The translations under genes were made by a program, and so were the position numbers. From a virus (Duplodnaviria > Caudoviricetes), in the IMG/VR virus record IMGVR_UViG_3300025862_000007, positions 1-43,722 of that record: DNA of 43,722 nt; one strand, given 5' to 3'. Position 1 is the stretch's first letter; every line of letters starts with the position of its first letter. Positions 19,470 to 43,430 of this stretch are shown piece after piece. The notes beneath the pieces are model-generated. The model made no database searches and was not told the DNA's origin. It was given only the letters and a program-made list of their open reading frames with translations.

Positions 19470-20210
19470 CTATGGTCCAACACAGAATGCCCCGACTTGC
19501 GGGACAAAACTGGCGGAAGCGCCGCAACCGCTATACCCCGGTGATGCGCTGCCTGCTGTTGTTCCGGTCAGGGCGCCGGTGTTGCTGTTACCCGATGAAT
19601 CAGGTTCAGGACTCGTGATGCCGCAAAGGTGCAGGTAAGCTACAAGATTCGCCGCGGCGCTCCCGGCATTCGGATTTCCGGAAGTGTCTGCCGCGATAGC
19701 AGCGATTTGTAGCGAAGTCAAAGCGGTGTTGTAGAGTCTGGCTTCCGATATGCTACCAGTGAAAAAATCCCCACCCTCGTCCGTACCAATATAAGCGGTA
19801 GCGCCTGATAAAGATTCGAAACTCGCGCCGCCTTGTGTCTGACTGAAGTAAGTATCTTCCACGCCATTGACGTATAAATGTACAAACTGGTCCGTAGCCT
19901 GATCGTACGTCAGGGCTACGTGTGTCCACGTACTAAGCGTGATTGCCGTAGTCCCGGTACTGGAAGCGTTCGGGGAATTGACGGCCACACTGCCAGACAA
20001 CGCGCCGTTACCGCCGGCGTTTACCAAAAGATAGACATCAATCGGTACAGCGATCGTGCTGAGTGTAAAGACGACATCCGAATTGCCGCCTATGTCTGTC
20101 AGATAAATCCATGCGCAGAGCGATAGTCCCGGACCCATCGATGAGATGGATGCGCTGGGATTTAATGTAATAAGATCTGACGTTCCGTTGAATATTCGTG
20201 ATCCAGCCAT
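19470..20210 (-). CDS. LamG / concanavalin A-like lectin domain protein
   Basis: LSLCAWI, WTHVALTYD, LYVNG, FTGSISEARLYNTALT, and LVAYL..DSSGNSNTG LamG signatures. Confidence 0.88.
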   Translation of the reverse strand: MAGSRIFNGTSDLITLNPSASISSMGPGLSLCAWIYLTDIGGNSDVVFTLSTIAVPIDVYLLVNAGGNGALSGSVAVNSPNASSTGTTAITLSTWTHVALTYDQATDQFVHLYVNGVEDTYFSQTQGGASFESLSGATAYIGTDEGGDFFTGSISEARLYNTALTSLQIAAIAADTSGNPNAGSAAANLVAYLHLCGITSPEPDSSGNSNTGALTGTTAGSASPGYSGCGASASFVPQVGAFCVGP

Positions 20211-21384: not shown

Positions 21385-22491
21385 TTACTGGACTAATCCA
21401 ATCCAGTATTTAGTTCCTGCGATATCGATCTCGAGATAATTCACGATAGTCTGTGGCGCCACGGGACCGCTTCCGGTGCCTAACGTTGTCGTCGTAACCG
21501 GTGTAGCGGGTATCCCGTTACCAAATCCTGTAGTCGTTCCTAAACCAACCTGACCGGCTATTGTCGTTGGTGTCGCGCCAGTCAAAATAACTATCGGGGT
21601 GGTTATCCCGGTAACGAATGTCGGAGACGTCGCTAAAACAACCGCGCCTGAACCGGTCACGCCGTTAGACAAATCTGAAGCAGCGGGCTGGGTCTGTGTG
21701 AACAAGCCCGTAACCGCGTTATACGAATTTAACCATTCATGCGTGGCGGCCGTGATGGTCTGGGGGAGTTGCGGCGTTCCAGATATATCTGAATACGCTA
21801 ACTGTCCGACAGTAAAGGCTCCGCCTACCGTAGCCTGCTGGACTACTTGGTGCGCCCCGCCAGTCGCGGAAAGATTTGCTCCGGTTCCGCCGTAAGTCAC
21901 GCCGACAATCCCGGCTAGAACATCCGTGCCGGATAAAACTGCGCTGACGAAATCCGTCCCGTTACCACGGAGATAATGTCCAGCCGTTGCGGCTCCGGCA
22001 ATCTGGAAACCGGTCGTGGCGTTAAACACCGCGGCCGTGATGTTTCCTGAAAGGATCAACGACCCCGAAACGTTGACGCTCCCGGTGATCGTCACGATGT
22101 TGCTTGCGTTGTTGAATGTCAGAACGCTGCTGCCGGACAAAGCACCACCGTTGTTGAACTGAATGGCGCCGTTCGGCCCGCCTGCCACGGCGTTCACGGA
22201 GTTATTAATCGTCGTGGTTGACCCGCTCTGGACTGCCGCGCCGACCGACGGCTGGCCGGACGCCGCTAACGGGACGAGAGGCAGCTTAGCGATGTTGTAG
22301 GTCCCGAGTTGGGTATTGACGAAATTTACGTCGTGTTGCAGAGTCGGGGAAATCGGACCGGAGAAGAAATTAGCCATCGGGTTCGGACTACCAACAGCAG
22401 CCGCTGGGTTGATGGGCGCAGAGTCGATAGGACGCCAAGATTCCGGTAATCCGGCCTCTTCAGCCAGCGTTGGTTCCTTCTTCTCTTCCAT
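21385..22491 (-). CDS. tail fibre-like structural protein
   Basis: GGPNGAIQFNNGG, V.YGGTGA and TGSGAVVLATSPT fibre repeats. Confidence 0.7.
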   Translation of the reverse strand: MEEKKEPTLAEEAGLPESWRPIDSAPINPAAAVGSPNPMANFFSGPISPTLQHDVNFVNTQLGTYNIAKLPLVPLAASGQPSVGAAVQSGSTTTINNSVNAVAGGPNGAIQFNNGGALSGSSVLTFNNASNIVTITGSVNVSGSLILSGNITAAVFNATTGFQIAGAATAGHYLRGNGTDFVSAVLSGTDVLAGIVGVTYGGTGANLSATGGAHQVVQQATVGGAFTVGQLAYSDISGTPQLPQTITAATHEWLNSYNAVTGLFTQTQPAASDLSNGVTGSGAVVLATSPTFVTGITTPIVILTGATPTTIAGQVGLGTTTGFGNGIPATPVTTTTLGTGSGPVAPQTIVNYLEIDIAGTKYWIGLVQ

Positions 22492-23098
22492 TCAATTTAG
22501 CCTGTTGTGCTTTACGTTTTGCCCAACCCCATTTCATTCCATCAATTCTTCTCTTTCTTTGAAGTGGAGTATAGTTATCCCATGCCGATTTCTGGGCTTT
22601 CGCTATCCCCTCTTTATGCGGAGCAGAAAACTTTTTTCCTAAATTGCCTTTATTTCCTATTGCTGAAAGAGCCTTCTTTTTTCTAGTTTCTAAAGAGTCT
22701 TTTTTACCAAATTTCGGGTGATTAACCCCTAAATTAATTTCGCTCAATTTTCTTTTCGTATCGCCTGATAGTTTTCTGCCCTTTTTCCAACCGGGACCAC
22801 CGTCTCCGCCCTTCGTGATGTTGTATCCGCTGTTTCTAGAGTCAAATTTCTTTATATAAAACATTTCAGCTTTATTTAAAGCTTTGTTTGATTTAAAGCC
22901 TCGGGCTAAAATTTCTATCTCCCAGAATTTTAAATCATGCTTCTTAAAAGCCAAATAGAGTTTAGGGCAACCTTTATCTCCAGACCTTCTGATAAGATTA
23001 ACTCGTCTAGGGTATAGTGTATCTTTACCGATATACCCTACTCGGCCTCGAGAACTTCTGTTATGCCATAATCTGTAAACAACCCTATTGGTTTTCAT
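22460..23098 (-). CDS. GIY-YIG homing endonuclease with NUMOD3-like repeats
   Basis: VVYRL..GYIG..R, catalytic E (AEMFYI), GYNITKGGDG, and K-rich repeats (LSGDTKRKLS, SLETRKK); AT-rich free-standing insert. Start at ATG23098 or GTG23104. Confidence 0.88.
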   Translation of the reverse strand: MKTNRVVYRLWHNRSSRGRVGYIGKDTLYPRRVNLIRRSGDKGCPKLYLAFKKHDLKFWEIEILARGFKSNKALNKAEMFYIKKFDSRNSGYNITKGGDGGPGWKKGRKLSGDTKRKLSEINLGVNHPKFGKKDSLETRKKKALSAIGNKGNLGKKFSAPHKEGIAKAQKSAWDNYTPLQRKRRIDGMKWGWAKRKAQQAKLNGREEGTNAG

Positions 23099-23106
23099 AT
23101 ACACTC

Positions 23107-23138: not shown

Positions 23139-26100
23139 CTAAAATTCGGACATTAGCCTTCCGAAGACGGTGAGGTTAAAAAGCTCATCCCCTACCGAAG
23201 TCTTACCATAATCCACCCGAATTTGAAGGTGTCTGGCTCTAGCAAGACTCTTTGTCGCGCTGAAATAATAACGTAGTGGAGAATACGAACCCGGAACTCC
23301 GGTATTTCCATAAATCGACGGTGGGTCGTACTGCGGGTTTTGGGTAAACGGAAAAAATTCTCCGGAAATTTCGTTCAAAAGAAAACTAACCGTCGGCCGG
23401 AAACTGCGACCACTAAAGTCCATTTCAAGGAATTTGAGGACTGCCAACTGCCCGGGGTGTACAAGCATAATCGAACCCATCGTGAAGTTAGCGTCGTATT
23501 GCACGCCGTTATCCGTAAATTTCTTAAGGTCGCGGTACATGATCTGGTACCCGGGCGCAGGACCTAGCAACGTGATTGAGTTTCCACTCCCGGTGTTGGA
23601 CGGAGAAAAAATCTTGTTGGTGTCGAGAGTCACGGCGCCGTTCTGTGCCCACATCCCGCCGTTCGTCGTTGCGCTCGTGCTTACCGTGATAGACGTCAGA
23701 GCCGCGATAGTCCCGTTGAACACCGCGCTGGTTCCGATCGTGGCCGAACTCCCTACCTGCCAGAATACGTTGGCAGCCAACGCTCCATTCTTCAGTATGA
23801 CAGACCGGCTGTTCGCGACTATCAAAGTCGAGGCTGTCTGGAAGACCCACGTCGAGTCAGGATTTCCAGCCGCGTCGAGTATCAGGTCACCCGACGTGAT
23901 AAAGAACGCGCCGGACGAGCTGCTATAGACACCAGAAATCAAAGTCTGGCCGCCTAAGTCCGGATTTGCCAAAACGGTCGGGACCAGCGTGGCAGCCTGA
24001 TTGTAGGCTTGCGTCAAATCTATCTTAGCTTGAACGGCTGCCGGGTTATCGACGTTCGACGTTCCGGTTACCGTCGGAGATCCGGTGACGGAACTGCCGG
24101 GGCTCAAACCTAGGTCGCCTGTAATGGTCGTCGAACCGGTATTGGTGATCGTCGTGCCGGCCAAGACTCCATACGTTTTTGCGGTTCCGAGATCAATGAC
24201 GCCCTTCGTAGCGAATCCGCTCGCCTGACTTGCTGGACCTGACAGAGTCCCGACCAGCAACTTCTTTAATCCCGGCGCAGTCTGGACGCTCTTAACCATC
24301 TTGCTGCCGTTCGTGATGCTCGCGAAAGGACTCCAGATAGGCTCCGGACCTTGGTATCCGCCCGGTGTCTGGTAAGGGTTCAGCCTGTACCAACCCGTCG
24401 AACCATCGGCAACCATGATGCAGTTATCAATCCCGGTCTGGTGGACCGTGACGTAGCCGGTAGCCGGGTTCCATATCGTATCCGAGACTCCTGACGACGG
24501 CAAGTTGGCGAACTGGTCACCGATAGAGAAGCCGACACGGCTGAGATTCAAACTCGGGCTGATCGCGTAAAACTGGTTATCCGCGCTGAAGAAATAAATT
24601 TCTCCGGCATGGACGTCAATCATGTTGTAGCTCAACAAACCGACGTTCGGAACAAGCTCGACCGAGAAGAACGACGCGGTCTGAGGACCACCGGCGATTA
24701 TCTCGACGCTGTCCGTCAGGAACGTCACCAATCCTTGCGAGTTCTTGACGATAGCCACGACGTTCGCCAAAAACGGCAACTCGTCTGACGGGTTAAACGC
24801 TTCGTTCGGGTTGCCTGTCACGACATCCGGTCCGCCTGAGAAATTTACAGACTGACCTTCCGCACCCCAGATACGCTGGAAGTTATAGACCATCGGCAAA
24901 AATGTCGTGGCCGGCGGATCGTTTGAGTCATCGATTGGCGCCGAAATCAGGACGTTCAGGCCGGGATACAGCGATGTCGGTGCGTCTGGCAAGAAGTCTT
25001 TGAATATCCAGTCGACGTGGACAATACCAGCCGCGGTATTTACTGTAAAAAGTTTCGTTCCAGCCTGAGACGGGATATTCGGGATTTCAGTCAGTTCGAA
25101 CATATTGGTCGGTCCACCACCATCGGCGTCTCGCCAAATAATGATTGTATCGACTTGCGGGTCTGGCGAATAGTTTCCACCGATCGTGTTGACCGCGCCT
25201 GTATCCGCACCCACGATAGTGAACACCGGGGACGCAGTCGAGACAGCATTCGTTTCGCTACCAGTCGGGGCAAGTAATGGGTTGCCCAATCCCGGCGGAA
25301 TCGGGGGATTACCTGTCCCGGCGACGTTGACTGTATAGAAATCAGTCAGTGAACGCGACTTGTAGGAATACGCGTAAACGTGCCCGACTGTCCAACTGAG
25401 AGACTCAGTCGGCGCGACTTCAAGATTGTACCAAAGAGCGGCATTATCGGTCGTGTATTGCCCGATCGGGTTCCATGATGGTGGGCCCGGATTCTCGCCT
25501 ACCCCGCTGTTCGTGACATACTGAATATCCCCGGATTCTACAATCGCGGCTCCGCCGAAAGGCGAACTGCTTGACGGTGGCGAGAATCCAACCGTCGGCA
25601 AAAACCACTTCGTGTTCGGGGCCCATACGTTCGCGACTCCGACGCATGTCCAGACTAGGCCGTCTGTCCCGTCAGTCGTCGTTATGCTTCCATAATTAGA
25701 AGCCCATGTAGGATGGCTTCCGCTTCCGCTCTTTCCTGACGTCGTGCAGACCTGCCAATTCCCATTCGAATCTTTGATGGCCGAAAAAGGCGTCCCGCTC
25801 GCAGTCCATGCAGTATAGTTTGTGCCCGACACCCATGCGTCAGACCCGAGCGACATCCAGATAAGGTCGCCGTCGGTAGTTGGTGTGGTCCCGACCGTCG
25901 CGCCGAAAGGCGGCGGAGTTGTCGCGGATCCAGACGTCCCGCCGTTTGACGAGAATATAAACTCGTACGGAGGACCCGGATTTGGTGGTCCAGAAACTCC
26001 AAGCGTGTTTGGTTCGACAATCGTAGTTGTAGAATCATTATTTGAAACCGTACCGTACGCAGGATACGACTGTCCCGGCTGCCAAATTCCCGGCTGACCC

Positions 26101-27575
26101 GGTAGAACCCCCGGCTGTAAAGCGTTGCCCATATATACCCAGTTCAGACCGTTATCGGGAACGTGCCCATTCGGTCCGGGCACAAATCTCGGGGGTGTGC
26201 TGCCCGCATTTCCCGCAGGACCCGATTGGATATATACAGCCTTTGTTATGGGGTCCCAGACAAAGCACGGCGCAGCGATAGTTCCACTGGTGCTGCCGTT
26301 GCTGTAAAAAGCGTTCGCGACCCATAGACCGACAGGTCCGCGGTTCGTCCAAGTGATTAGACCGTCAGGGACTGTCTGACCGGGAGTCTGCGCCAATGCC
26401 CAGTTAGGCCCGCCTGTTCCGGAAGTCCCGAACTGTGTCGTGTTTGTCGTCGATGCGTTTACGGAAATAAGTTGTTGGACAGAGTTGGTCGTATTATCGT
26501 AGACCAATCCCATCGTCGACCACATCGTGTTCGGTACCCACGTTACCGCCGCGGAGCCGCTCGGAACAATCTGAACCGCAGGCTGGCTTCCCGGCGCAGC
26601 GATTCCCCAGTTCCAGACAGTCCCGTTTGTGTTCAACGGTGTGTACTTCTGGACGTCTACTCCGTCACCGATATAAAGGACTCCGCCGACTGCCGCAAAA
26701 TAGGACTGACCAGCACCGGGCGACTTTCCAAATAGGACAGTCTTGGTGCCGTTCTGGTTATCGACGTAAACCGCGCCTGACGATATCGCGTTGGCTGAGG
26801 CGTTCTCGGATATCGAAAATGAGTTTGCAACAGTCACGGTCAAGTTAGTTGATGCAACGACTGTGAATGTCCCGTTGTTGGACGCGTTTGTGAAACCCGT
26901 TATCGCGAGTTGCAGACCAAAGAAGGCATTATTCGTGGCTGACGGGACAGACGAAGTGAACAAATAGACTGCCGCGCCATCAGCGAAAGCGTTCTTTACT
27001 TCCGCCACGCCGTTCGGATTCGCCAGCGTCAAAGTACTTGTAGTGGATGCCGTGCATAAGAAGACGCCGTTGTTCGCGTTGTTGGTAAATCCGCTAATTA
27101 TAATCGTGTACCCGTTAAAAGCGTTTGAGCCGCCGCCGGTAATGGCTCCGGTATAAACAGTGCTGCCGCCAGAAGCCGCGGCGACAGAAGTCAGCGCGAG
27201 CCTCGGACCGATTGCGCCGTTGACGGTCTGTAGAGGGATGTTACCGGTCGTGCCGGTATCGACAATGACTTGGATGGTTCCGTTGGCGAGTTCAAATGAA
27301 AAAGCAGTGTCTGGCGCAGTAGGGTAGGTGACGGTTGAAAACGGGCTAAGCCCGGGACGACGTTGGAGTGTAAGACGGTTGGTGAGTTCGATGTTGGCGC
27401 CCATCCAGAGCGAGTCAGGACGGCCGCCATAGAACTTAGATTCAATAATGCCGGAAGGGTCGTGCAGCGGGGCGCGTTGTGTGAATAAACCTGTGAAGGC
27501 GCGATCGACAAATAGCGGAACAAATTTAGGTTCCTTCTGTGGTCGCGCGCCTGCTCCTTCCAGTAAATTAGCCAT
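23139..27575 (-). CDS. tail nozzle / stabilisation-type protein (1478 aa) with inserted beta-rich modules, five Trp-rich CBM-like repeats and a DUF3494 ice-binding domain
   Basis: N-terminal L..RPG pattern and position typical of podovirus tail tubular B / P22 gp10-like proteins; DUF3494 signature at about 23607-24200. Confidence 0.75.
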   Translation of the reverse strand: MANLLEGAGARPQKEPKFVPLFVDRAFTGLFTQRAPLHDPSGIIESKFYGGRPDSLWMGANIELTNRLTLQRRPGLSPFSTVTYPTAPDTAFSFELANGTIQVIVDTGTTGNIPLQTVNGAIGPRLALTSVAAASGGSTVYTGAITGGGSNAFNGYTIIISGFTNNANNGVFLCTASTTSTLTLANPNGVAEVKNAFADGAAVYLFTSSVPSATNNAFFGLQLAITGFTNASNNGTFTVVASTNLTVTVANSFSISENASANAISSGAVYVDNQNGTKTVLFGKSPGAGQSYFAAVGGVLYIGDGVDVQKYTPLNTNGTVWNWGIAAPGSQPAVQIVPSGSAAVTWVPNTMWSTMGLVYDNTTNSVQQLISVNASTTNTTQFGTSGTGGPNWALAQTPGQTVPDGLITWTNRGPVGLWVANAFYSNGSTSGTIAAPCFVWDPITKAVYIQSGPAGNAGSTPPRFVPGPNGHVPDNGLNWVYMGNALQPGVLPGQPGIWQPGQSYPAYGTVSNNDSTTTIVEPNTLGVSGPPNPGPPYEFIFSSNGGTSGSATTPPPFGATVGTTPTTDGDLIWMSLGSDAWVSGTNYTAWTASGTPFSAIKDSNGNWQVCTTSGKSGSGSHPTWASNYGSITTTDGTDGLVWTCVGVANVWAPNTKWFLPTVGFSPPSSSSPFGGAAIVESGDIQYVTNSGVGENPGPPSWNPIGQYTTDNAALWYNLEVAPTESLSWTVGHVYAYSYKSRSLTDFYTVNVAGTGNPPIPPGLGNPLLAPTGSETNAVSTASPVFTIVGADTGAVNTIGGNYSPDPQVDTIIIWRDADGGGPTNMFELTEIPNIPSQAGTKLFTVNTAAGIVHVDWIFKDFLPDAPTSLYPGLNVLISAPIDDSNDPPATTFLPMVYNFQRIWGAEGQSVNFSGGPDVVTGNPNEAFNPSDELPFLANVVAIVKNSQGLVTFLTDSVEIIAGGPQTASFFSVELVPNVGLLSYNMIDVHAGEIYFFSADNQFYAISPSLNLSRVGFSIGDQFANLPSSGVSDTIWNPATGYVTVHQTGIDNCIMVADGSTGWYRLNPYQTPGGYQGPEPIWSPFASITNGSKMVKSVQTAPGLKKLLVGTLSGPASQASGFATKGVIDLGTAKTYGVLAGTTITNTGSTTITGDLGLSPGSSVTGSPTVTGTSNVDNPAAVQAKIDLTQAYNQAATLVPTVLANPDLGGQTLISGVYSSSSGAFFITSGDLILDAAGNPDSTWVFQTASTLIVANSRSVILKNGALAANVFWQVGSSATIGTSAVFNGTIAALTSITVSTSATTNGGMWAQNGAVTLDTNKIFSPSNTGSGNSITLLGPAPGYQIMYRDLKKFTDNGVQYDANFTMGSIMLVHPGQLAVLKFLEMDFSGRSFRPTVSFLLNEISGEFFPFTQNPQYDPPSIYGNTGVPGSYSPLRYYFSATKSLARARHLQIRVDYGKTSVGDELFNLTVFGRLMSEF

Positions 27576-27614: not shown

Positions 27615-28790
27615 TTATACGCCGCGAGCCTGACTGCCTTGCTGTGTCCGAAGGGTGGACGCCGTCTGTTCAGAATCGCGAGCCAACCATTGCTGGCGGA
27701 AGATGTTGATTTGTGTCTGAGTCAAGCCTTCGGCCTTCGATAGCAATGCCGCGACACCGCGTTGACGGTATCGTGCCGCTTCTTGGTCATCGTTGGCCGT
27801 CTGGAATGCTTCCGATAAAAAAAGATTATTATAAATATCTGAAAAACTATCCGGAATCGGGGCCCAGCTTCCGTTGAAAGCCGTCGCGGCTCCAGTCGGA
27901 GGAGTCTCAGCAACACCGTTCGGGTTCGCCAAAACAAGCTGTGTGCTCGTGCTGGACACGACAGTGTAGGTTCCGTTATTCGGGGAAATGACCGCGCCAA
28001 TCGCAGTCGCCGTTGCAGTCTCTGCAGTTCCGGACTGGCTCACGACAACCAAAGTCGTGCCGTTGACTGATACTATTTTGAATACGCCGTTGTTTCCAGC
28101 GTTAGTGAAGCCGCTAATCGTTACATCGGTTCCGGCGGGGAAATACGCTGTGGTGAACACGCCGGTGTACGTCGTGTACGGACCGACCGAGTTGGCGACA
28201 GACGTGATTCCAGAAACGCCGTAGCTTGTCGAGAAGCCGTCGATAGTCACAGGAGAGCCGGCAGGGAATGATGCCGGGGTAAATATCCCAGTATACTGCG
28301 TGTTTCCGCCTACAGCCGTGGCTGAGTTGACAACAAACGGACCGAACTGAACCGCGATTCCCTGATATGTCAAATTTACTGTGTAGGCTTTATCCGGAAT
28401 CGTGTTGAAACGAATCTTCAGGCTGACACCCGGGACGTACGATATGACTGATACTGCGCTCGGACGCTGGACGGTGCTGTTCTTGGAAAGAGGCGTGGTG
28501 TTCAGGATGTCTTTCAATTCTTGGACGTTCCCAGCCGGGTCAGTCAACGATGCCTTCTCGATAAAACCAAAATTAGTCAATGCGACAGTGTAGTCCTGAT
28601 CTACCAGAGTGGTAGTAATGCTGCTGTCTTCGAAGCGGTTCCAGCTCCACGTCAGCGGGGGATTCATCATCGAGTTACGGACTATCGAGGCAATAGAGGC
28701 CGCAGGCTCAAAACCAGTGTTGTTTGACAGCGGTTGGTTTTGGATATAGGCAAGAGCCCAATTTAATGTCGTTTGAACCGTGTTTGGCAT
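27615..28790 (-). CDS. head-tail adaptor / tail tubular A-like protein with nested repeat modules
   Basis: W.WN..QDY..E pattern shared with the 437-aa protein; lies just upstream of the nozzle gene. Confidence 0.6.
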   Translation of the reverse strand: MPNTVQTTLNWALAYIQNQPLSNNTGFEPAASIASIVRNSMMNPPLTWSWNRFEDSSITTTLVDQDYTVALTNFGFIEKASLTDPAGNVQELKDILNTTPLSKNSTVQRPSAVSVISYVPGVSLKIRFNTIPDKAYTVNLTYQGIAVQFGPFVVNSATAVGGNTQYTGIFTPASFPAGSPVTIDGFSTSYGVSGITSVANSVGPYTTYTGVFTTAYFPAGTDVTISGFTNAGNNGVFKIVSVNGTTLVVVSQSGTAETATATAIGAVISPNNGTYTVVSSTSTQLVLANPNGVAETPPTGAATAFNGSWAPIPDSFSDIYNNLFLSEAFQTANDDQEAARYRQRGVAALLSKAEGLTQTQINIFRQQWLARDSEQTASTLRTQQGSQARGV

Positions 28791-28802: not shown

Positions 28803-29417
28803 TTAACTGCCCGCGTAGACTTCTTCAGGTTCGTCGGCCGGCTTCAGTAAAGCCTCAACCGAGTATCCGGCCGGGCTTTTGAAGACCGCTAAAACTCCGC
28901 CCGGTTCTACCTTGGCGTGATCCATATCATCGTGAAGCATCCGGTTGATTTCTTTAATGACAGACCCATGGACGCCGACTACGACAGGGTTCTTGGCGGA
29001 TTCGCCTTTGTGAATCAACTGCATTATCTTGGCGTCGACCCGCTTCCGGAAATCACCGACCTTCTCGCCGTCCGGAATCTGTTCTTCCGGATGTTCCCGA
29101 TACCACTTTAATTCTTTCAGGTTTTCTTTATCTTTCGGCTTTCCCGCGAACTCGCCCGTGTCGAGGGAATCTAGAGCCTTCAAAGGCTTCATCTGCATGC
29201 CTTTCGCTTCCATCAACGGCTTCATCGTCTGGGCGACGCGCTTCCGGGTGCTGCCGTACGCTCCGCTGAAAGCCTTATTCGCGAAGAAAGGCACGAGCGC
29301 AGCCGCCTGCTTCTCGCCGTCCGCGTCGAGTGGGATGTCAAGGTCGCCGCGGAATTCGTTTTCTTTGTTGAGTTCTGTTTCTCCGTGCCTGATAAAAAAT
29401 GCGATAATCTTTTTCAT
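28803..29417 (-). CDS. histidine phosphatase (phosphoglycerate mutase superfamily)
   Basis: FIRHGET motif, S..R..QT, GE, VGVHG. Confidence 0.9.
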   Translation of the reverse strand: MKKIIAFFIRHGETELNKENEFRGDLDIPLDADGEKQAAALVPFFANKAFSGAYGSTRKRVAQTMKPLMEAKGMQMKPLKALDSLDTGEFAGKPKDKENLKELKWYREHPEEQIPDGEKVGDFRKRVDAKIMQLIHKGESAKNPVVVGVHGSVIKEINRMLHDDMDHAKVEPGGVLAVFKSPAGYSVEALLKPADEPEEVYAGS

Positions 29418-30071
29418 TTAACCTTCGCTACAATGCCTACAACTTTCTGACTTGATTCCACGATTTACGTGATAACGAATGTGGGCACCTTTTAGAGCGC
29501 CTAATTTGCCGTTCAAAATTCTTTGCTCAGGAGGAATAGAGTGAGACGCTTTCGTCGCTCTCGCTTTCTTTTCTTCAGGAGACAATCTAGCTCTTTCTGC
29601 CCTGATGCCTTTTGTTCTATCGAAACCGGGAGCGAAAATGCCGACTTGTTTTTCTTGCGCTATTTTAGCCCAACTGCTTAACTGCTCAGACGTGGCGTTT
29701 TGATAATTTTTATGTCCTCGAGTTTTATAGAGCGGTTTACCTAATTTAGACTTTCTCATCTTTTCACGGACTTCCGGAGAAAATCCTTCGCTAGTTATGC
29801 CCTCGCCACCGGCTGTGAGATTCCTTAAACAACCAGTCCCCAAATCCAATCTTCCGTAATACTTAATGAAGAATTTCTCTGTCTCAAAAGCTGATTCTTC
29901 GTCGCGACACAGGATAATCTGAATAAACTTGGAATCTCTGGGGACTTTCAACCTATGATCAGCTTGCGTAGAAGCGCGATCACCTTTACCTTTTCCGATG
30001 TAATACGGGCTGCCTATCGGCCACCCGTTAGTATTAGTCGACCGCATCCAGATATATGCATAAAACATCAT
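29418..30071 (-). CDS. GIY-YIG homing endonuclease
   Basis: FYAY...YYIGKG..R, catalytic E (ETEKFFI), NLTAGGEG, and NUMOD3-like SPEVREKMRKS. Confidence 0.85.
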   Translation of the reverse strand: MMFYAYIWMRSTNTNGWPIGSPYYIGKGKGDRASTQADHRLKVPRDSKFIQIILCRDEESAFETEKFFIKYYGRLDLGTGCLRNLTAGGEGITSEGFSPEVREKMRKSKLGKPLYKTRGHKNYQNATSEQLSSWAKIAQEKQVGIFAPGFDRTKGIRAERARLSPEEKKARATKASHSIPPEQRILNGKLGALKGAHIRYHVNRGIKSESCRHCSEG

Positions 30072-30145: not shown

Positions 30146-31459
30146 TTATCTTGTTGGATACTGGAACGGCCAACTTGGCCCAAGGAACCTGTTGCGTCCC
30201 GGCGCTCCACCAAGAATCCCACGGTCCGGTACGAATGTATTCTCTTCCATTTCTCGGTCTTCCTTCGACCTAAATTCCTGCAGCGACTTCAGCCAGACAG
30301 CCCACGCGGCTTGAAACTTCGAATACACGGCCTTCTGCGGCGAGAAGCGATACAATTGGGCAATCAAACCCATCTGGAAATGCGGCTCAAACTCGTCCCA
30401 CAGCGGCGCGAGCGTCTGGTTCGTGTTCGTGAAACGGACAGGCTTCATCTGGCCGACGACGTTAAATTGCCAAACGGTTCCGGACTGCGCCGGTACCGGG
30501 AGTAGACGTAGACCTTGGCCGAAAGGATCTACGACGGTCCAGACTGTCGTGGCTCCTACGCCAGAAACCTGTGTTCCGGGAGTCGCACCGATCGGCGCGA
30601 GTGGCGCACCTGTCCCTTCTATCCCGAATCCAGTCAAGACTAGATAATTTCCATTCGCGTCTCGGATCTGAAGGACCGGGTTGTTCGGCATCGAACTCGT
30701 GCTCGAGTTGCCTATCGTTCCGCCGGCTAGATATGTCCCGGGGTCGGGCGTCGCTGATACCACGACCGTGTTATCAATAATGGCTGTCACGGAATACGTG
30801 CTGTTGTATGTCGCTGGGTAGGCTTGCGTCACAACCAGTTCAGACCCTACGGTGAGAGCCCCGGGAACGCTGCTGAGATTAAAACTGATCTGTCCGCCGT
30901 TCGCGCTTGACCAGACGGCCGCCAAGACTGTCGAACCTAGCGGGCTGGTGTAGATTGCGCCGGGATACGGATTATTTCCGGTCGATGTGGTTCCGTTACT
31001 CGGTCCGCCCCACGTTCCGTAATACAACTGGTTATTAAGCATCCAACTGACTAGATATGCCGGGCTCGACATCATCGACGAGTTAAACATCGTGCCTGTC
31101 GACTGTGTCAACTGGCGTCCGGTCTCGATCGGGCGCCACGGCTTCGGCTCGGCACTGTTATTGATATCGATAACCAAACCACGTTCGAGCCATGCTAGAT
31201 TCGTGACTGACGTCCCGTTAGGGTTCACGAGAGCGTAGTCTTGCTGCAGCGTGTTGGTGTAGATGTAAGGCAGGTTGAACTCGTTCCACTTCCAAGGAAA
31301 CTGGACCGCGCAGATCGCGTTCATGACGTTGTTCGCGGCAGTCAGAATGACGCGAGATGTGTTTCCACCGACATTCAAAACGGGTTCAAGATCCGCGAAT
31401 GTCTGCAGGATATCAATCTCGTCTTGAAGCGTCACGGTGCATTGCGAATTCGTTGCCAT
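30146..31459 (-). CDS. head-tail adaptor-like protein (paralogue of 27615..28790)
   Basis: FPWKWNEF..QQDYAL..WLER versus LTWSWNRF..DQDYTV..FIEK. Confidence 0.6.
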   Translation of the reverse strand: MATNSQCTVTLQDEIDILQTFADLEPVLNVGGNTSRVILTAANNVMNAICAVQFPWKWNEFNLPYIYTNTLQQDYALVNPNGTSVTNLAWLERGLVIDINNSAEPKPWRPIETGRQLTQSTGTMFNSSMMSSPAYLVSWMLNNQLYYGTWGGPSNGTTSTGNNPYPGAIYTSPLGSTVLAAVWSSANGGQISFNLSSVPGALTVGSELVVTQAYPATYNSTYSVTAIIDNTVVVSATPDPGTYLAGGTIGNSSTSSMPNNPVLQIRDANGNYLVLTGFGIEGTGAPLAPIGATPGTQVSGVGATTVWTVVDPFGQGLRLLPVPAQSGTVWQFNVVGQMKPVRFTNTNQTLAPLWDEFEPHFQMGLIAQLYRFSPQKAVYSKFQAAWAVWLKSLQEFRSKEDREMEENTFVPDRGILGGAPGRNRFLGPSWPFQYPTR

Positions 31460-36446: not shown

Positions 36447-36452
36447 TTTAGT

Positions 36453-36503
36453 ACTCTCCTTGAAAGAGTTGGTCGGGAGCACGTTCAAGGCGTGCCCCCA
36501 ACC
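36453..36503 (-). promoter_or_regulatory. structured 5' leader: 13-bp hairpin followed by an RBS-sequestering hairpin
   Basis: Stem 36471-36483 pairs with 36491-36503; second stem 36453-36459/36463-36469 covers the AAGGAGAG SD. Confidence 0.65.
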
Positions 36504-36513
36504 TACTTTTATA

Positions 36514-36542
36514 ATCTTAACACAGATGGCCGTCTGTGTCAA
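36514..36542 (-). promoter_or_regulatory. sigma70-type promoter TTGACA-N17-TAAGAT (extended -10) of the HNH gene
   Basis: On the - strand: TTGACA 36542-36537, TAAGAT 36519-36514; inverted repeat ACACAGA/TCTGTGT (36520-36539). Confidence 0.75.
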
Positions 36543-36551
36543 GAGGTTTGG

Positions 36552-37577
36552 CTACTGAATCGCAGGAACTGAATCGATCCAACGAATACGCTGAGTGTTA
36601 ACACCGGTAGCAGGTGGTAACGTTACTGTTTGGTGAAATTTATACGAAGCCCACCCGCCAATTGTGGCAGTAGGATCGAACGAACTCGGAGGCGCGTCAG
36701 TTACAACGCGGCACTCGATCGTGCGCCAATCGCCTTCGTCCAAGTCGGTGTCTCCCGGAACCTCGAGCCATACGCCGATCAAAGCGTAGTTCCCGAATAC
36801 ATAAGTCCGGTAAGCGATCTTCTGGCTACCTTGGTAGTTCGAAGTCTTGGTAACGAAAGGAGTCTGACGGAACACGATGTTCGTGCCCGGGAGTTCGATT
36901 TCCATGGTCTGGTCAGCGCCAGCCATCTTGTCGAACTTCTCCATGTTTGCGAACTTCCACAAATCAACGATCGAGTTGTTGACGGTCGTTGCGTTGTAGA
37001 TATCACCCAACACGTTCGGGCTGATTGCGCCCATGAACTTACCCTTCTTGCAAGGCAGGACGTCTTCTGAAACAAGCTGCTGCTTCAGTTCACGGATCGT
37101 GCCAAGGTCAAGAGTGTAAGGGCTGGACAGAAGAGCGGACTGGTTGACATTGCTGTCGACCGTTGACGCGCTGTCTGCTACTGCGGAATACAGTTCGGAA
37201 ATCGACTGACCGGCCTGATATCCAAGCTCGACAGCGGAGTTTCCGACCAATTCGTCGATGGAAGCAGCAATCGCGAACGAAGAAAAGTTCGTGTAGTTGT
37301 TCCACTCACCCAGCTGCGCCGGTGCGCTGATCTGTGTGATGAGTTCCGGATTTCCGACAGTACCGTCTTGGCTGGCAGAGATATCGCCGGCAAGAGTGTT
37401 GTACTGGAAGAAGGTCCGGTTAATACCGGCATGCAAAGGCTGCACGCGCCGTTCAGCGCAAGCAACGAATGCGTCCGTCTCGCCCTTCAGGTTCGGGATC
37501 AGTTCCTTATCGAACAAGATCGCCTGAGCCGTCAGGACGTTTGATACGTTTTGTGCGGACGGGTTTGGTCCACTCAT
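36552..37577 (-). CDS. major capsid protein (HK97 fold, N4-gp56/P22-coat-like)
   Basis: 341 aa; directly follows the scaffold; ends with DP..TIGGWASYKF, typical of this MCP class. Confidence 0.85.
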   Translation of the reverse strand: MSGPNPSAQNVSNVLTAQAILFDKELIPNLKGETDAFVACAERRVQPLHAGINRTFFQYNTLAGDISASQDGTVGNPELITQISAPAQLGEWNNYTNFSSFAIAASIDELVGNSAVELGYQAGQSISELYSAVADSASTVDSNVNQSALLSSPYTLDLGTIRELKQQLVSEDVLPCKKGKFMGAISPNVLGDIYNATTVNNSIVDLWKFANMEKFDKMAGADQTMEIELPGTNIVFRQTPFVTKTSNYQGSQKIAYRTYVFGNYALIGVWLEVPGDTDLDEGDWRTIECRVVTDAPPSSFDPTATIGGWASYKFHQTVTLPPATGVNTQRIRWIDSVPAIQ

Positions 37578-37592
37578 AAATCACCTTGTAAC

Positions 37593-38888
37593 TTAGACCC
37601 GTGAGGCTCGCGCTTTGTTGTAGGCCGCGATTACCCGTGCGATTTCTGCTTTTCGGGCAGGATTCTTCTGCTCCTTACGCATCTGTTCGCCGGTCCACCC
37701 CGCGATGTCTTTCATGGTAAGTCCGGACGGAGTAGCCGCCGGTCGAGTCCCTGTGGACTGGCCGGGCAATAGCCCTCCGTTGACTCCCGGTCGGCGGGCA
37801 GGCGCTGGCGGATTAGGCGAGGCGACTGTTGCGACCGGCGTTACTAATGCCGCTTCTGCTACCACCGTCGGTGTTATTTCCGGCGTTGGCGGCTTCGGCG
37901 TGACCTGCTGTACTGTTGACACCGCTGGCGTATTAGTCGCCGGCTGTGCCGTTTCCGTTTCAACTGGCGCCTGAACAGGCACTAGCTGCGGTTCTGATGC
38001 GGCGAACGCGAGTTCAAGGTTGTCTTCGGTCCAAGCCAACGGGTTTCCGTCGGCGTCCGTGTGTTCCTTGAGGTACTCAGTGATGAGTTTCGCATTTGCT
38101 TGGCAAGGGTTGTAATCGTGGCGGTGACGGGCCTTGAAAGCGTTTACGACTTCGTTCTGTCGCACGTTTTCGTCAACTACGGCCTTCTGTTGCTGTCCAC
38201 GAAGAATATCGTCTGACCGAAGTTTACGTTCGGCCTTCAAAACGACCATCTCGTCGTCGCTGTTCAAATCTAGAGCCGCCTGAATCCTTTCGTCCTCTGA
38301 CATCAGAGGTACCTGAGGAATCTTGATTGGCTCGACTACCTTCTTTGTGAAGGTCGTCTTCTGGTCCTTCAAACGGTGGAACGCGCGCGTCGCTTGAACG
38401 TGCGCTTCCTTCTGCTTCCTGACGAGTTCAATCCAGCTGCGCGCCTCGAGGTGAGTCGAGCGGCCGATCGCGTTACCGTGCTCGTCGGTTGCTTGATAAT
38501 CTTGGACAAGTTTGACGATATTGCCGACCGCGTCGCGGTAAACCGTGATGCCGGCTTCAATCAATGCTTGGTCTTCTTCAGACTTACGTGCTTCTTCAAT
38601 CTGGGCTGCTGCAGCTTGTGCCACCGCGGCGTGCGCTTCCGCTGCCTGACGGTCGGCTTCTTCCTGATTGAATTCTTCAACTACCGGGTTATCGACTACT
38701 TCGGTTTCCTCGATAGGTTCTGTTGATGAGCCTGCCGCGATCTCTGCCACGACTCCGCGACCTTCCGGTGTGAGTAAAAAAGCGTTGACTTCCGCTAGTC
38801 TCGCCGGGTTCTTCATAATCTTGTGTAACTCTTCCTGTGACATGTTGACAATATAGTCCCGCGTCAAAGGTGTAGGTGTGGAACTCAT
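37593..38888 (-). CDS. capsid scaffolding protein
   Basis: Acidic coiled coil plus P/T/A-rich linker; located between portal and MCP. Confidence 0.75.
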   Translation of the reverse strand: MSSTPTPLTRDYIVNMSQEELHKIMKNPARLAEVNAFLLTPEGRGVVAEIAAGSSTEPIEETEVVDNPVVEEFNQEEADRQAAEAHAAVAQAAAAQIEEARKSEEDQALIEAGITVYRDAVGNIVKLVQDYQATDEHGNAIGRSTHLEARSWIELVRKQKEAHVQATRAFHRLKDQKTTFTKKVVEPIKIPQVPLMSEDERIQAALDLNSDDEMVVLKAERKLRSDDILRGQQQKAVVDENVRQNEVVNAFKARHRHDYNPCQANAKLITEYLKEHTDADGNPLAWTEDNLELAFAASEPQLVPVQAPVETETAQPATNTPAVSTVQQVTPKPPTPEITPTVVAEAALVTPVATVASPNPPAPARRPGVNGGLLPGQSTGTRPAATPSGLTMKDIAGWTGEQMRKEQKNPARKAEIARVIAAYNKARASRV

Positions 38889-38924
38889 ATTAACTCCCGT
38901 ACAAAATTGGATTGGACTGCCGAA

Positions 38925-39257
38925 TTATTCTTGTTGCTCAGCGACGGCTTCTTGAGCCTTCTGCTGTTCTTCCAAATCTTCGACTACGCCGTGCTGGACG
39001 TGATAGTTAATCGAGTCACGAACCAAACGGGTGAATGCATTCACGTCATACGCATATGCGTGACGTGCTTTGACTTTCTGGTCATAATTGTCTTCTTCAG
39101 GACTGGTGTTGATCGCTGTTGCCGTTGCTTGGTTGCATCCAGCTTCGATGAGTTTCACGATGACCTGAAAGCCGGGTAACCGACTGACCTGACCTAGTGC
39201 TATTTTCTCCCCGAGGGTCAGTTCCTTCATGAGGAGGGGTTTTTTAGCTTCCGCCAT
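38925..39257 (-). CDS. small helical protein between portal and scaffold
   Basis: Position matches the conserved small gene in podovirus head modules; SD AGGAG. Confidence 0.7.
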   Translation of the reverse strand: MAEAKKPLLMKELTLGEKIALGQVSRLPGFQVIVKLIEAGCNQATATAINTSPEEDNYDQKVKARHAYAYDVNAFTRLVRDSINYHVQHGVVEDLEEQQKAQEAVAEQQE

Positions 39258-39272
39258 TGGTACTCCTATTGT

Positions 39273-41396
39273 TTAAAGATTTGTTTCAGTTCCGAAACCC
39301 TGTGGACTCGTGCCCGGCTCTCCGGTATTCTCCATGTCCAAAGAATGCTGGATAGACTGACGGAGAACTTCGCCGCCGGCCTTGCCCAACTGTTTCTGGT
39401 CTTCCATGACCTGATCTTGCTGGAACTTCTGAGCCTGCATCTGCTGCTGGCTCTGGGCTTGCTTTTGCTGCAGCGCCGCCGGAGAGTTGGCGTCATGCTT
39501 CTGCTTCTCGACGTCTGTCATCGGTCGCAAGAATGCCTGACTGAACTTCCAACCGGCCGCGTCTGTAAATGCCTTGAATACCGCGATGCCGTCGAACATG
39601 TATCCACCGTCCGTGACGTTCTGGACGAATGTCGGGTTGTTCAACAACTGGATGATAATCGGTAACGCCTGAGCCATTTCCTTCTTGGCGCCGAGGTGTG
39701 AACCGGCCAGCACTTCGTACTCAAACTTTGCTTCACGGAAATCAATATGGTCGACTTGATACGCGGCGTCTTCCTTCTTAAAAGACTCACCGAGGATGTC
39801 GCGAAGTACCGCCGTCGGAAGAAGGTCGTTGTTCATCGTGTCCATCTGGTACAGCCATGGGACAAAGATCTGTCTGATGAAACGACCGTCCGGTCCGTCA
39901 AGACGGCTTGCGTTCGCCTGTACGACGGCCGCAGCACCGGTTCCTGACCGCATACCGGTCGACTTAATGCCGGCCGAACTGACGCCTTGGACTGTCTGTT
40001 CGTTCGCGCCAGATGACGCTGTCGCGCTGGACTGAGCCTGTTGGATCGCGGCCCACGCGCCCGGAGGAATCGGCGGCATTTCTAGAAACTTGAACGCCTT
40101 GTCGACGTCTTCGTCGACTTCAATGATTCCGCCCTGCTTCCAGCGAGTGTTCTGTGTCGGCGCATTAAAGCCACTCTTCCTAACTGCCGTAGGCTGCAAG
40201 CCGTAAGCAAGAAGGTCAAGCGCCAAGTTAGTAACGCCTTGTTCAACCAATTGTTCGCTGCCAATTAGCACCCCAAGACCCTGTCCGTAAAAGCAGTCAG
40301 GGATGTTGCGCCAGTTCGCGGAGTAGAAAGGCAACTTACCGTAGGGATTGGCTTCGTTACGAATCAAAATGTAGTGACCGTTGAAAGACAGAGCAACGAC
40401 TACGCGCTCTTTATCCCAACGCTCGATGATCTCCATCGGAGACTTCATCGGATCCGCGGAGGTCTTCTGGTTCGCAGGTACGGCGTGCTGGAGATAGCCC
40501 AGCATGCCTTCCGGAATCGTCAACGAGATGTTCTCCATCCCTGACGTGATTCCTTGAATAAAAATGTGCTTCAAAACGTCTTCGTTCGGAATTACGTAGC
40601 CTTCGACGTCGCGGAGCTTTTCAAGATCGGAGTAGGTCGCGTAATCGCGATAGACAACCCAGTTAGCGCACTGGATGTCGCCGTATCGGCAGTTCGGGTC
40701 TACGAGAACCTTCCGGATATCGCAGTACTTAATCCATGGACGAGAAATTAACTTGTCGTCATACTCGATAAGAACTTCGTCGGATCCCGGTGTGTCTACA
40801 AGAGTCGGGGGCCCGCCAAGCGGGTTCGGGATAGACTGCTTCTCTTCCTTCCGCTTGTAACGCTTGACCTTTTCCGGATACTCGAGGTATCCCCACTTCA
40901 TGATGCAGGTTCCGAACAACGCCATCTGATCGAGGGCTCGTTCTGCCTCTTCCTCGAACTTCATGTCCCATAACTGGGCGCTGAAGAGCGCAGTCTTGGC
41001 GCGGACGATATCCTGCGAAACTCCCGGACGGGGACGAAGCAAGAACGGGGGATCTTCATAAAAGATTCCGCCCATCAACTTCGGGACAATCGAGGAGATG
41101 TGGTTGCTTAGAATGAACTTCGGGACGTTGGCTTGGGCGACGTTACTACCGTCAAACGCTGATGCTGCTGCCGGAGATTGGTAAAGCGTGTCTGCCAAGG
41201 TCCAGCCGCTTGCCCATTGATTGATGTTGATGTAATTATCGGCTGTGTTTGTGTCGTCGATTAAAAGTTTGAGCGCAGCCCCGTCCTTGAAACTCATGGT
41301 ATTGGTTTCAGGGTCGACGTGTGCGTTGTCTTCGGTTATCTGCGCATCCGGTATCAGGTATAGATCGTTAGCCTGTACGGATAGGTCCTCGCTCAT
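39273..41396 (-). CDS. portal protein (P22-like)
   Basis: 707 aa after the terminase; FGT.I.K.G, NPY..LPF, FYGQG motifs; Q-rich C-terminal tail. Confidence 0.88.
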   Translation of the reverse strand: MSEDLSVQANDLYLIPDAQITEDNAHVDPETNTMSFKDGAALKLLIDDTNTADNYININQWASGWTLADTLYQSPAAASAFDGSNVAQANVPKFILSNHISSIVPKLMGGIFYEDPPFLLRPRPGVSQDIVRAKTALFSAQLWDMKFEEEAERALDQMALFGTCIMKWGYLEYPEKVKRYKRKEEKQSIPNPLGGPPTLVDTPGSDEVLIEYDDKLISRPWIKYCDIRKVLVDPNCRYGDIQCANWVVYRDYATYSDLEKLRDVEGYVIPNEDVLKHIFIQGITSGMENISLTIPEGMLGYLQHAVPANQKTSADPMKSPMEIIERWDKERVVVALSFNGHYILIRNEANPYGKLPFYSANWRNIPDCFYGQGLGVLIGSEQLVEQGVTNLALDLLAYGLQPTAVRKSGFNAPTQNTRWKQGGIIEVDEDVDKAFKFLEMPPIPPGAWAAIQQAQSSATASSGANEQTVQGVSSAGIKSTGMRSGTGAAAVVQANASRLDGPDGRFIRQIFVPWLYQMDTMNNDLLPTAVLRDILGESFKKEDAAYQVDHIDFREAKFEYEVLAGSHLGAKKEMAQALPIIIQLLNNPTFVQNVTDGGYMFDGIAVFKAFTDAAGWKFSQAFLRPMTDVEKQKHDANSPAALQQKQAQSQQQMQAQKFQQDQVMEDQKQLGKAGGEVLRQSIQHSLDMENTGEPGTSPQGFGTETNL

Positions 41397-41411
41397 TAAA
41401 ATCCTATGCCT

Positions 41412-43430
41412 CTATTGTGGCTTCACCGGCCATGTCGGCCGCCAACCGGCGTCTGGTGCATCGCTCGATGGCGGGACGAATAGTGTCGCGGCTGTCGGCT
41501 TACCGAATATCCTGTCGTACTGGGCTCTCATCTGGGATTTTTTCTTCTCGCCTTCCGCGTACGCCTTGGCTTGCTCGGCGTCTTTTTGGTTCATGGAGGT
41601 GATAGGGAAAAAAGTCAAATGAAAATAACTCATCGCGTCAGGGATGTCGTCTTTACGTCCTTTCGTCTTCTCCTCGCCTGTGTACCTCGTGAGTTGATAA
41701 AAGGTCGGGTCTATCCAGTTACCGATAACGAACCAAAGCAGGTCTTCCTTCAAAAGTGTTTCGAGACCTTTGATTCTGTTTCTCTTCGCGTGTTTCTCGA
41801 GCGATGGTTGCCGCCAGAAAATATCAAGCGTGACGCCGAAGACTGGAGCGAGTCTGTGCAATTCATTCTTGAGCCACTCAGATCCGGTCGAATTTTCGAT
41901 TAACGTCTTTTTTGGATTCCATTTCTTGTTCAGGCTGATGATTTGCAGCGCGAGTTCTGAAGACGTCCACTTATCGCAAACGACTTCCAAAATGACTAGA
42001 CCAGTCCTGCCGTCTTCGCGACGATACACCCGTCCGACAACGCCGGCAGAGTAGTCCGATCGTTTATTCGCGGTCAACGCCCAGTCCCAGCAAATGAAAG
42101 TATCCCCGGTTTGCGGGGCCGCTTCCTTCTGGTAAAGATGTCGGCGAAGAACGTCTTCGTCGAATGAGACCTTAAAGTTGTCGTCGTCCATCGAGCCGGC
42201 TGGCTCGTTGAGTTGTTGACAACGAAACTGTTTCTCGTTCTCGAGAAGTTTAGATCGAAGAGACCGGAACGTCGCCTTCTCCGGGAAATTCAATATCACC
42301 ATTTCTTCAGTCAGGTCCAGTAAAGGAACCTCTGAGTACTCAGGCTTAACTTCCCAGCACTTACGATGGAATATCTTAATCGCGGAATCGCTCGATTCTT
42401 CTGACTTCTGGAGTTTCAGACCATACCAATCCGGGACGGGCTTACCGAAGTATCTCGTTCCGATGGTGTCAGCGAATCCCCATTCGTCAAGGATGCTGCT
42501 CGTTCCGCCGTATTTCTTGTTGAGTTCTTCCCGGACTTCTTCCTTGTTGCAGTTCTTGTCCGTGATGACGTCGTCGCCTTTCTTCAAATCGCAGTGCCAT
42601 CCTGACAAGTTACCGCCGACCGGGCGGACCCAGAACGTCGGCTCTGTCTGGTTATGCTTCCGGCAAGGAATCGTGAAAGGCGTTCCGGTAGAACTCTCTC
42701 TTCCCACTAGAACGTACTCAGGGAAAAGTAAATGAAAGTCTGTCGGCTTCTCGCCTTTAGACAGACACAGATATTTTTTGACCGCGATCATCATGGCCTT
42801 CGCCAAAGAGTGTTCGCCGGTGATTAACAAAATTCGGATGTCCGGGACGTTAATCATCCACTGGACACAATCGACTCGACTGATCGTCGACTTATAGAAC
42901 CCGCGAGGGTCGAGGATCAAGGCTTCTTTCGTCGGGTTACCTTCCGTATCAAAACGCTCTTGTCGGTCAATCGCCTTATGGACGTCGCCGATAGTGTAGC
43001 CATCCGGGAAAGCACCATCGAAGTTCTTCTGGACAAACTGATCGCAAATGACTTGGTGGGTGGTCGAGACAAAGTCGTGCCTCAAAACCGCTGTTCCGAA
43101 CCAGAATAAATCTTTTCGTGCCTTGTCCCGGAGTTCGAGCCATTCTTCAAAAGAGCAACTCAAACCCATAACCTCGGAGTTCGAGGGGTTCGGGATGACC
43201 ATCTTTTTCTTCTTTCGTGGGTCGTCTTCCTCGTCGTCTTCCGCTTCTTTGTAAGACATGCCGAGATAGATCTTTCCTAGGCTCTCATACGACAGCGCCT
43301 CAGACTTATAACGCTTCCCGGCGGACTGCCTATCCTTCTCGAGCAAGGAATCAAGAAACTCGCTGAGCTTCTTTAAATTTTCCTGATAATTCTTATTGTA
43401 CTGCTTCTTTGCTTCGCCTTTTAACGCCAT
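41412..43430 (-). CDS. terL: terminase large subunit
   Basis: PRGFYKST Walker A, G.H.D..DD Walker B, IGTRY coupling motif, RNase H-like D..DY..E..DDIPD. Confidence 0.9.
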   Translation of the reverse strand: MALKGEAKKQYNKNYQENLKKLSEFLDSLLEKDRQSAGKRYKSEALSYESLGKIYLGMSYKEAEDDEEDDPRKKKKMVIPNPSNSEVMGLSCSFEEWLELRDKARKDLFWFGTAVLRHDFVSTTHQVICDQFVQKNFDGAFPDGYTIGDVHKAIDRQERFDTEGNPTKEALILDPRGFYKSTISRVDCVQWMINVPDIRILLITGEHSLAKAMMIAVKKYLCLSKGEKPTDFHLLFPEYVLVGRESSTGTPFTIPCRKHNQTEPTFWVRPVGGNLSGWHCDLKKGDDVITDKNCNKEEVREELNKKYGGTSSILDEWGFADTIGTRYFGKPVPDWYGLKLQKSEESSDSAIKIFHRKCWEVKPEYSEVPLLDLTEEMVILNFPEKATFRSLRSKLLENEKQFRCQQLNEPAGSMDDDNFKVSFDEDVLRRHLYQKEAAPQTGDTFICWDWALTANKRSDYSAGVVGRVYRREDGRTGLVILEVVCDKWTSSELALQIISLNKKWNPKKTLIENSTGSEWLKNELHRLAPVFGVTLDIFWRQPSLEKHAKRNRIKGLETLLKEDLLWFVIGNWIDPTFYQLTRYTGEEKTKGRKDDIPDAMSYFHLTFFPITSMNQKDAEQAKAYAEGEKKKSQMRAQYDRIFGKPTAATLFVPPSSDAPDAGWRPTWPVKPQ

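Follow-up and report, generated by a model that had tools for sequence, protein, structure and literature searches.

A DUF3494 ice-binding-type cassette in a loop of a predicted podovirus tail nozzle and its recurrence among soil-virus virion proteins

The DUF3494 family (Pfam PF11999, Ice_binding) is also present in ice-free habitats (PMC7783341, PMC12337378): it occurs in the tropics and in hot springs, and its members have been proposed to bind minerals or other substrates of repeating structure (PMC7783341). In viruses, ice-binding or antifreeze genes have been taken as a means of host cryoprotection (PMC11515562, PMC8407431, PMC13547368), and in a catalogue of eCIS fibres ice-binding appears in a reference alone (PMC12923769). 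In the openly accessible literature we found no published description of DUF3494 in a phage tail or virion protein. The domain and the strategy of virion display are each known, and their combination is undescribed. The phage Tunturi 3 provides a cultured reference: it is an Arctic tundra podovirus whose host is Tunturiibacter psychrotolerans, and its relatives occur in permafrost peat, but in temperate US soils as well (PMC11924767).

The window analyzed here is a linear virus record of 43,722 nucleotides (43.7 kb) that is 41% complete. A sequence-only reading had proposed that a complete DUF3494 domain is inserted in frame at positions 23607–24200. This stretch lies on the minus strand and encodes 198 amino acids without stops, corresponding to residues 1126–1323 of a 1478-aa open reading frame (23139–27575). 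A Pfam search revealed PF11999 at residues 1137–1322 (window 23610–24167), covering profile positions 1–207 of 208 with an E value of 8.8e-54 and a score of 182.7 bits (cut-off 28.7), so that the domain is indeed complete; it is the only PF11999 match in the whole window. While the frame is open as proposed, the insert extends further than first delimited. The closest full-length relatives listed, P0004 (88% identity) and P0005 (85%), run uninterrupted over the insertion site with a gap of 0, and the cassette therefore measures 228 aa (Table 1).

Table 1. Features of the nozzle gene, its cassette and the surrounding morphogenesis block (window positions).
Feature	Position	Strand	Remarks
Whole cassette	23556..24239	-	228 aa, aa 1113-1340, linkers included; missing in closest full-length relatives
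DUF3494/PF11999 β-solenoid with bracing helix	23610..24197	-	aa 1127-1322; capless EfcIBP/AnpIBP type
N-terminal linker, Gly/Ser/Ala-rich	24198..24239	-	pLDDT <50 at aa 1112-1120
C-terminal linker, Gly/Ser/Pro-rich	23556..23609	-	pLDDT <50 at aa 1326-1344
Central strand of predicted b-face	23733..23750	-	aa 1276-1281; Ser1276 and Thr1279 equivalent to AnpIBP Ser153 and Thr156
Tail nozzle (hub) gene, predicted	23139..27575	-	1478-aa ORF; platform β-sandwich and β-propeller with inserted modules
Nozzle backbone upstream of cassette	24240..27575	-	aa 1-1112
Nozzle C-terminal part after cassette	23139..23555	-	aa 1341-1478; closing part of the last propeller blade plus platform strands
Likely head-tail adaptor gene, just upstream of nozzle	27615..28790	-	resembles L107 protein and Tunturi 3 gp12/gp13
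Terminase, portal and major capsid genes, morphogenesis block of nozzle	36552..43430	-	Pfam/PHROG matches

A model of aa 855–1478 (pLDDT 77.5, pTM 0.41) shows the domain folded between low-confidence linkers, with a helix at aa 1178–1195 amid short strands, that is, a discontinuous β-solenoid with one long helix. In a Foldseek search with this model the top 31 ranks were all DUF3494 proteins, and nozzles ranked lower. The solved homologues came first, 6eio with a TMt of 0.84 at an rmsd of 2.0 and 7bwx with a TMt of 0.90 at an rmsd of 1.7. Both were also matched by sequence, with E values of 9e-47 and 8e-32, respectively. PF11999 was the sole Pfam family found in the nozzle protein, which contains no mobile-element domain, and a search of the junctions for terminal repeats or a target duplication returned only imperfect repeats of 10–12 nt of the chance type. 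An intein, an intron or an IS was therefore rejected as the nature of the cassette.

Outside the insert, the 1478-aa protein matches neither Pfam nor PHROG families, and a 106-row profile of the backbone gave no PDB sequence match. Since sequence-level identification gave nothing, the assignment as a nozzle rests on fold. As a stand-in we folded P0005, a relative without the insert that shares 85% identity over aa 720–1125, from a 106-row alignment (pLDDT 85.6, pTM 0.71). The top 20 Foldseek ranks were tail proteins of short-tailed phages, including cyanophage A4, P22, SU10, Sf6, T7, and crAss001. VIA-align yielded Z scores of 25.5 for the Pa223 tail, 23.0 for the P22 tail and 22.3 for SU10, whereas unrelated propellers stayed below these values at no more than 19.6. 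The propeller comprises residues ∼72–1045 of the P0005 model, and the insertion point corresponds to a loop at residues 1031–1039, between strands near the propeller end. The genomic context shows the same picture: terminase, portal and major capsid genes lie upstream of the nozzle gene on the same strand, followed by a gene that we name adaptor based on a weak SU10_adaptor match of the similar L107 protein, and an integrase gene is found elsewhere in the window. Both hallmarks of podovirus nozzles, a platform plus β-propeller fold and a gene position after terminase, portal, capsid and adaptor, are found in this locus. Judged by the modeled fold of its insert-free relative, the protein is a podovirus tail nozzle, in agreement with the nozzle-type protein named in the sequence-only reading.

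Among 50,697 GenBank phages, Tunturi 3 is the sole cultured phage with a relative of this nozzle (32% identity). Five related loci come from genome collections; four of them lie in bins labeled Acidobacteriota, with two of these labels assigned to the phylum by us, and one lies in an archaeal bin. The host of the phage is likely a member of the Acidobacteriota, a grading that we do not raise because such bins may contain stray phage contigs.

Some further features of the structural block should be mentioned. Three homing-endonuclease-like genes of low GC content break it (window 22460–23104, 29418–30071 and 36036–36542), one of them immediately following the nozzle gene. A gene of the histidine-phosphatase family (PF00300, E 2e-31; window 28803–29417) lies just before the adaptor gene and recurs in relatives. 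In addition, a module of ∼75 aa is present twice in the N-terminus of the nozzle (window 27015–27239, ∼aa 112–190), again in the adaptor (27615–28790), and in many small neighboring genes of relatives as well as in Tunturi 3 gp7. It represents a second mobile virion module and has no family name.

We then compared the insertion loop between nozzle relatives. The backbone (aa 720–1125) retrieved 453 relatives at E ≤ 0.001, and the best 120 of these 453 were compared: the window protein and 119 others, one of which is truncated and was set aside. Among these listed matches, the loop is empty in 115 of 118 comparable relatives; two carry DUF3494 in the same loop, and in one the next loop is filled by 211 aa of unrelated sequence. 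In a 143-row FastTree of the nozzle core, cassette presence requires five changes (gains or losses), and the window protein and P0003 fall into a group with 99 support together with the insert-free P0004 and P0005. Five of the 30 viral loci retrieved by the nozzle backbone carry DUF3494.

To authenticate the insert, six sequencing runs were examined for contigs over the cassette junctions. Two runs, labeled metagenome and soil and possibly the source of the record, contain 0.99 of the words of the gene, and five peat runs from 2016, perhaps from one campaign, contain 0.21–0.33; runs X8–X11, with a share below 0.2, were left aside. In each of the two 0.99 runs, one contig without any difference (0) covers both junctions. 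A peat contig of 92% identity (93 differences in 1161 bases) covers the whole insert, and another peat run provided two contigs, each bridging one junction. In runs X1 and X2 a second strain is seen on both sides of the insert; no contig of this strain over the insert, or joining its flanks, was found in these two runs. For the peat strains, at least 22 differences are listed within the domain, 19 of them at third positions; of the codons affected by these listed differences, 17 are silent and 3 are changed. Two pairs of relatives with the cassette in the neighboring loop gave dN/dS values of 0.04 and 0.15 for the domain; other pairs of relatives were saturated or nearly so, and between the window gene and loci of other lineages synonymous sites are saturated.

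These results bear on the trivial explanation, under which the cassette is a passenger without fitness effect or else a product of misassembly. Its dispensability, evident from the many empty loops, would fit a passenger. On the other hand, contigs from other runs extend across both junctions, purifying selection is strong, and the domain has been kept at this loop across 58–85% identity. An assembly chimera was rejected on the basis of the bridged junctions, and the trivial explanation as a whole appears very unlikely. The cassette is an in-frame, optional part of the nozzle under purifying selection.

Within the nozzle family, DUF3494 occupies four positions: near the N-terminus (P0098, P0107, P0115, L008, L009), in the loop of the window (P0003, P0009, P0270, P0261, L007, L116), in a loop ∼15 residues further on (P0162, P0164, L017, L046) and in an upstream hairpin (L026). 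Three domain lineages, 39–64% identical to each other, share the loop of the window. Nearby loops of P0024 and L023 are filled by unrelated inserts of 211–255 aa. More generally, unrelated Thr/Gly-rich inserts of 200–600 aa occur in other C-terminal nozzle loops (P0024, P0067, P0084, P0096, P0101, L023:5090-9346). They carry no Pfam name, and in the ESM Atlas the P0024 insert hit nothing but clusters without a name, most of them viral, at 0.77. One relative on a 209-kb contig from a Bryobacterales bin (L040:8490-12161) has the nozzle gene in three frames, reflecting either a decayed prophage or assembly errors.

The domains nearest to the window copy are other phage copies with 64–85% identity. 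No cellular donor could be named; the best non-viral identity among 431 domains is 59%. The nozzle-borne domains are split in a quick tree. In an AU test on the 104 rows that remained once five long branches and one duplicate had been removed, a common clade of these domains was not rejected (p 0.82), and the constrained tree even scored higher. We therefore dropped separate capture from cells at each site as a claim: since the test keeps a single clade, a phage-resident pool of relocating domains explains the data as well as repeated capture. The GC content of the insert (0.57; GC3 0.66) is close to that of the upstream gene (0.55; 0.60) and thus gives no sign of a recent foreign origin.

Is the cassette restricted to nozzles? 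A scan of viral contigs revealed 112 DUF3494 stretches, 80 of which were kept, and only 8 of these 80 loci belong to this nozzle family. Profiling 55 viral carrier proteins gave four matches to tail sheath, two to tail fiber, two weak ones to major-tail and one to head-decoration profiles, next to three matches to families of unknown function. The other 43 carriers lack any PHROG match, so that describing these carriers as mostly virion proteins would be unsupported. The L107 carrier is a relative of the adaptor. No DUF3494 was detected in GenBank phages with different DUF3494 query sequences. Taken together, the insertion seen from the sequence alone as a single event is real and is one instance of a DUF3494 cassette that moves among soil-virus virion proteins.

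Several carriers have additional peculiarities. Two separate DUF3494 genes are located on single viral contigs in a number of cases (L042/L064 and L043/L063, L026/L096, L007/L114, L099/L107), for example in the nozzle gene and again in the capsid block. Viruses outside this group (L031, L032, L035) have small DUF3494 genes that lack signal peptides and lie among unannotated genes. P0350 fuses a LamG part (32% identical to window 19470–20210), DUF3494 and a C-terminal part (51% identical to the 853-aa protein of the window, 31459–34020), indicating that virion-block genes of these phages swap modules.

By a crude hydrophobicity rule, a signal-peptide-like start is present in 2 of 74 viral carriers and in 126 of 211 other DUF3494 proteins; the 74 distinct carriers derive from 90 carrier frames after removal of duplicates and frames without a start. 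This touches on the interpretation of viral PF11999 genes as auxiliary metabolic genes that cryoprotect the infected host, which has been put forward for other viruses (PMC11515562, PMC8407431). The cassette described here lies inside a structural protein that is essential, has no export signal or signal peptide and is not predicted to give a free product, which makes a function of this kind extremely improbable.

We next inspected the putative binding face. The rows of the b-face were taken from AnpIBP as described in PMC7277481 and transferred via the 7bwx alignment, not via model geometry. In the window copy, 19 of 21 outward residues of the predicted b-face are small and Thr occupies five of seven ladder positions, counts that equal the medians of the viral set. 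The two remaining ladder positions are Ile and Phe, the latter replaced by Ser in two peat strains and by Thr in P0003. Ser1276 and Thr1279 are kept; Tyr mutants of their AnpIBP equivalents are reported to retain 17% activity (PMC7277481). Polar b-face positions that point outward show higher conservation than the remaining polar ones, both in 72 viral domains (0.77 vs 0.51) and in ten nozzle domains (0.80 vs 0.71), a contrast that is biased, as the scan pattern fixed one strand and Thr/Ser ladders may persist for stacking alone. Column 2, numbered after PMC7277481 and matched to PMC12337378 by composition only, contains three Ser, two Thr and two Ala and is not an all-Ala trough. According to the latter source, the all-Ala pattern characterizes polar-marine sequences of high activity, while Ser/Thr/Ala columns go with frozen sediment, rock or subsurface as habitat and perhaps with a lower ice-binding efficiency; EfcIBP is likewise mixed in this column, yet active.

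The domain is somewhat more likely than not to have affinity for ice in vitro. That ice is also the ligand on which selection acts is a separate proposition and one we consider doubtful. A cassette selected for ice itself would pin virions to ice or limit recrystallization and thereby aid survival or host encounter. The proven ice binders among the closest solved homologues (6eio, 7bwx), the two retained AnpIBP activity residues, the variant strains in peat runs and the permafrost-peat relatives of Tunturi 3 (PMC11924767) all point in this direction. Against it stand the composition of column 2 with its possibly lower efficiency (PMC12337378), the lack of the domain in the Arctic Tunturi 3, whose relatives also live in temperate US soils, and the small size of six tail domains, which could hardly shield a capsid in bulk. 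Selection for ice in this strict sense therefore seems unlikely. A cold soil or freshwater niche had also been suggested for the phage, and such a niche is a candidate at most: the run labels (metagenome, soil, peat) do not state climate and give just soil and peat as habitats, and Arctic Tunturi 3 has no such domain. Of the virion functions initially considered, adhesion fits the data; the ice-specific ones are weakened by column 2, by the ice-free members of the family and by Tunturi 3.

The alternative with a biological surface as ligand is that the cassette serves as an auxiliary host-recognition domain for exopolysaccharide or another repeating host surface and helps to position the short tail. 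It is located on the tail and hence near the cell at infection, the phage possesses other lectin-like or variable surface genes (LamG, 19470–20210), and neighboring nozzle loops are contested by unrelated inserts. However, a flat face poor in aromatic residues is atypical of lectins, and DUF3494 also occurs on sheaths, on an adaptor and in capsid-block genes, far from the tail tip. Ig-like domains on virions are thought to act in this manner (PMC9022992), but no DUF3494 protein with a glycan ligand was found in the literature consulted on the family. We regard this alternative as improbable.

We favor, with a probability of roughly 0.5, the view that the optional nozzle-loop DUF3494 cassette is an accessory virion adhesin for ordered hydrated surfaces, ice likely included. 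Since the gene is of a structural type, the nozzle should be part of the virion, and since nozzle homologues have C6 symmetry, the cassette would be present in six copies per particle, hanging on flexible linkers. It is expected to face outward, because the loop tolerates varied inserts of 200–250 aa and the channel for the DNA runs along the axis. With its flat Thr/Ser face the cassette would bind weakly, but multivalently, to a periodic lattice of hydroxyl groups or water, with ice in frozen soil, mineral and ordered polysaccharide as candidates, and such adhesion would raise virion persistence or encounter rate. The cassette probably does not itself serve as the primary receptor-binding protein for the host. 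The predicted accessory adhesion role is analogous to the one proposed for Ig-like virion domains (PMC9022992). More tentatively, soil and peat phages might share a mobile pool of ice-binding domains, grafted on nozzles, sheaths, fibers and adaptors, that lets virions adhere to ice and wait at the ice-water interface in freezing soil, where hosts are concentrated; we consider this extension possible at best.

If the adhesin reading holds, the focus for viral DUF3494 genes would move away from cryoprotection of the host and toward the surface of the virion, and a β-solenoid would join the short list of phage-displayed accessory domains. Ice binding would give virions a direct physical way to persist and to meet hosts in freeze-thaw soils; a different ligand would provide a clean handle on what DUF3494 binds in ice-free habitats. 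Both outcomes are testable with the cultured, insert-free Tunturi 3 and with pairs of near-identical genes that differ in the presence of the cassette.

Compared to described systems, the cassette itself is closest to EfcIBP (PDB 6EIO) and AnpIBP (PDB 7BWX/7BWY). It shares with them the fold (TMt 0.84–0.90, rmsd 1.6–2.0, 41–43% identity), the full PF11999 domain, the Thr/Ser b-face and the equivalents of Ser153/Thr156. Those two are free cellular proteins with measured activity, whereas the window copy sits as a cassette inside a phage nozzle protein, lacks an export signal and, unlike them, carries Ile and Phe in two positions of the ladder. In polar viromes, PF11999 “auxiliary metabolic genes” belong to the same Pfam family and also reside in phage genomes, but were taken as host cryoprotection (PMC11515562); one such gene listed there is 1.7 kb long with proline-rich repeats and not a nozzle.

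The carrier protein resembles the podovirus nozzles of P22 (tail, 8U10/8EAP), SU10 (7Z47/7Z4B), T7 (gp12, 7BOY), Pa223 (9NWI) and crAss001 (muzzle, 7QOK). They have the platform and β-propeller core in common with the P0005 model (Z 18–25, rmsd 3–4 over 430–550 residues), and their genes likewise lie after the adaptor and before ejection-type genes. Identity is only 8–14%, the window nozzle is much longer through its inserted modules, and none of these structures was matched via a DUF3494 domain. In the cultured Acidobacteriota podovirus Tunturi 3 (PP885686), terminase, portal, capsid, adaptor and nozzle are orthologous (25–43%) and in the same order; its nozzle continues without a break where the cassette is inserted in the window, and the phage yielded no DUF3494 match. 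The ortholog of the window nozzle is Tunturi 3 gp19 (L117:18182-21592), annotated as “head decoration protein”. The strategy of display, finally, is most comparable to that of Ig-like accessory domains, which are likewise optional, mobile, found on several classes of virion proteins and thought to aid adsorption (PMC9022992). They represent another fold, whereas the cassette described here would present a flat β-solenoid face whose sole proven ligand is ice.
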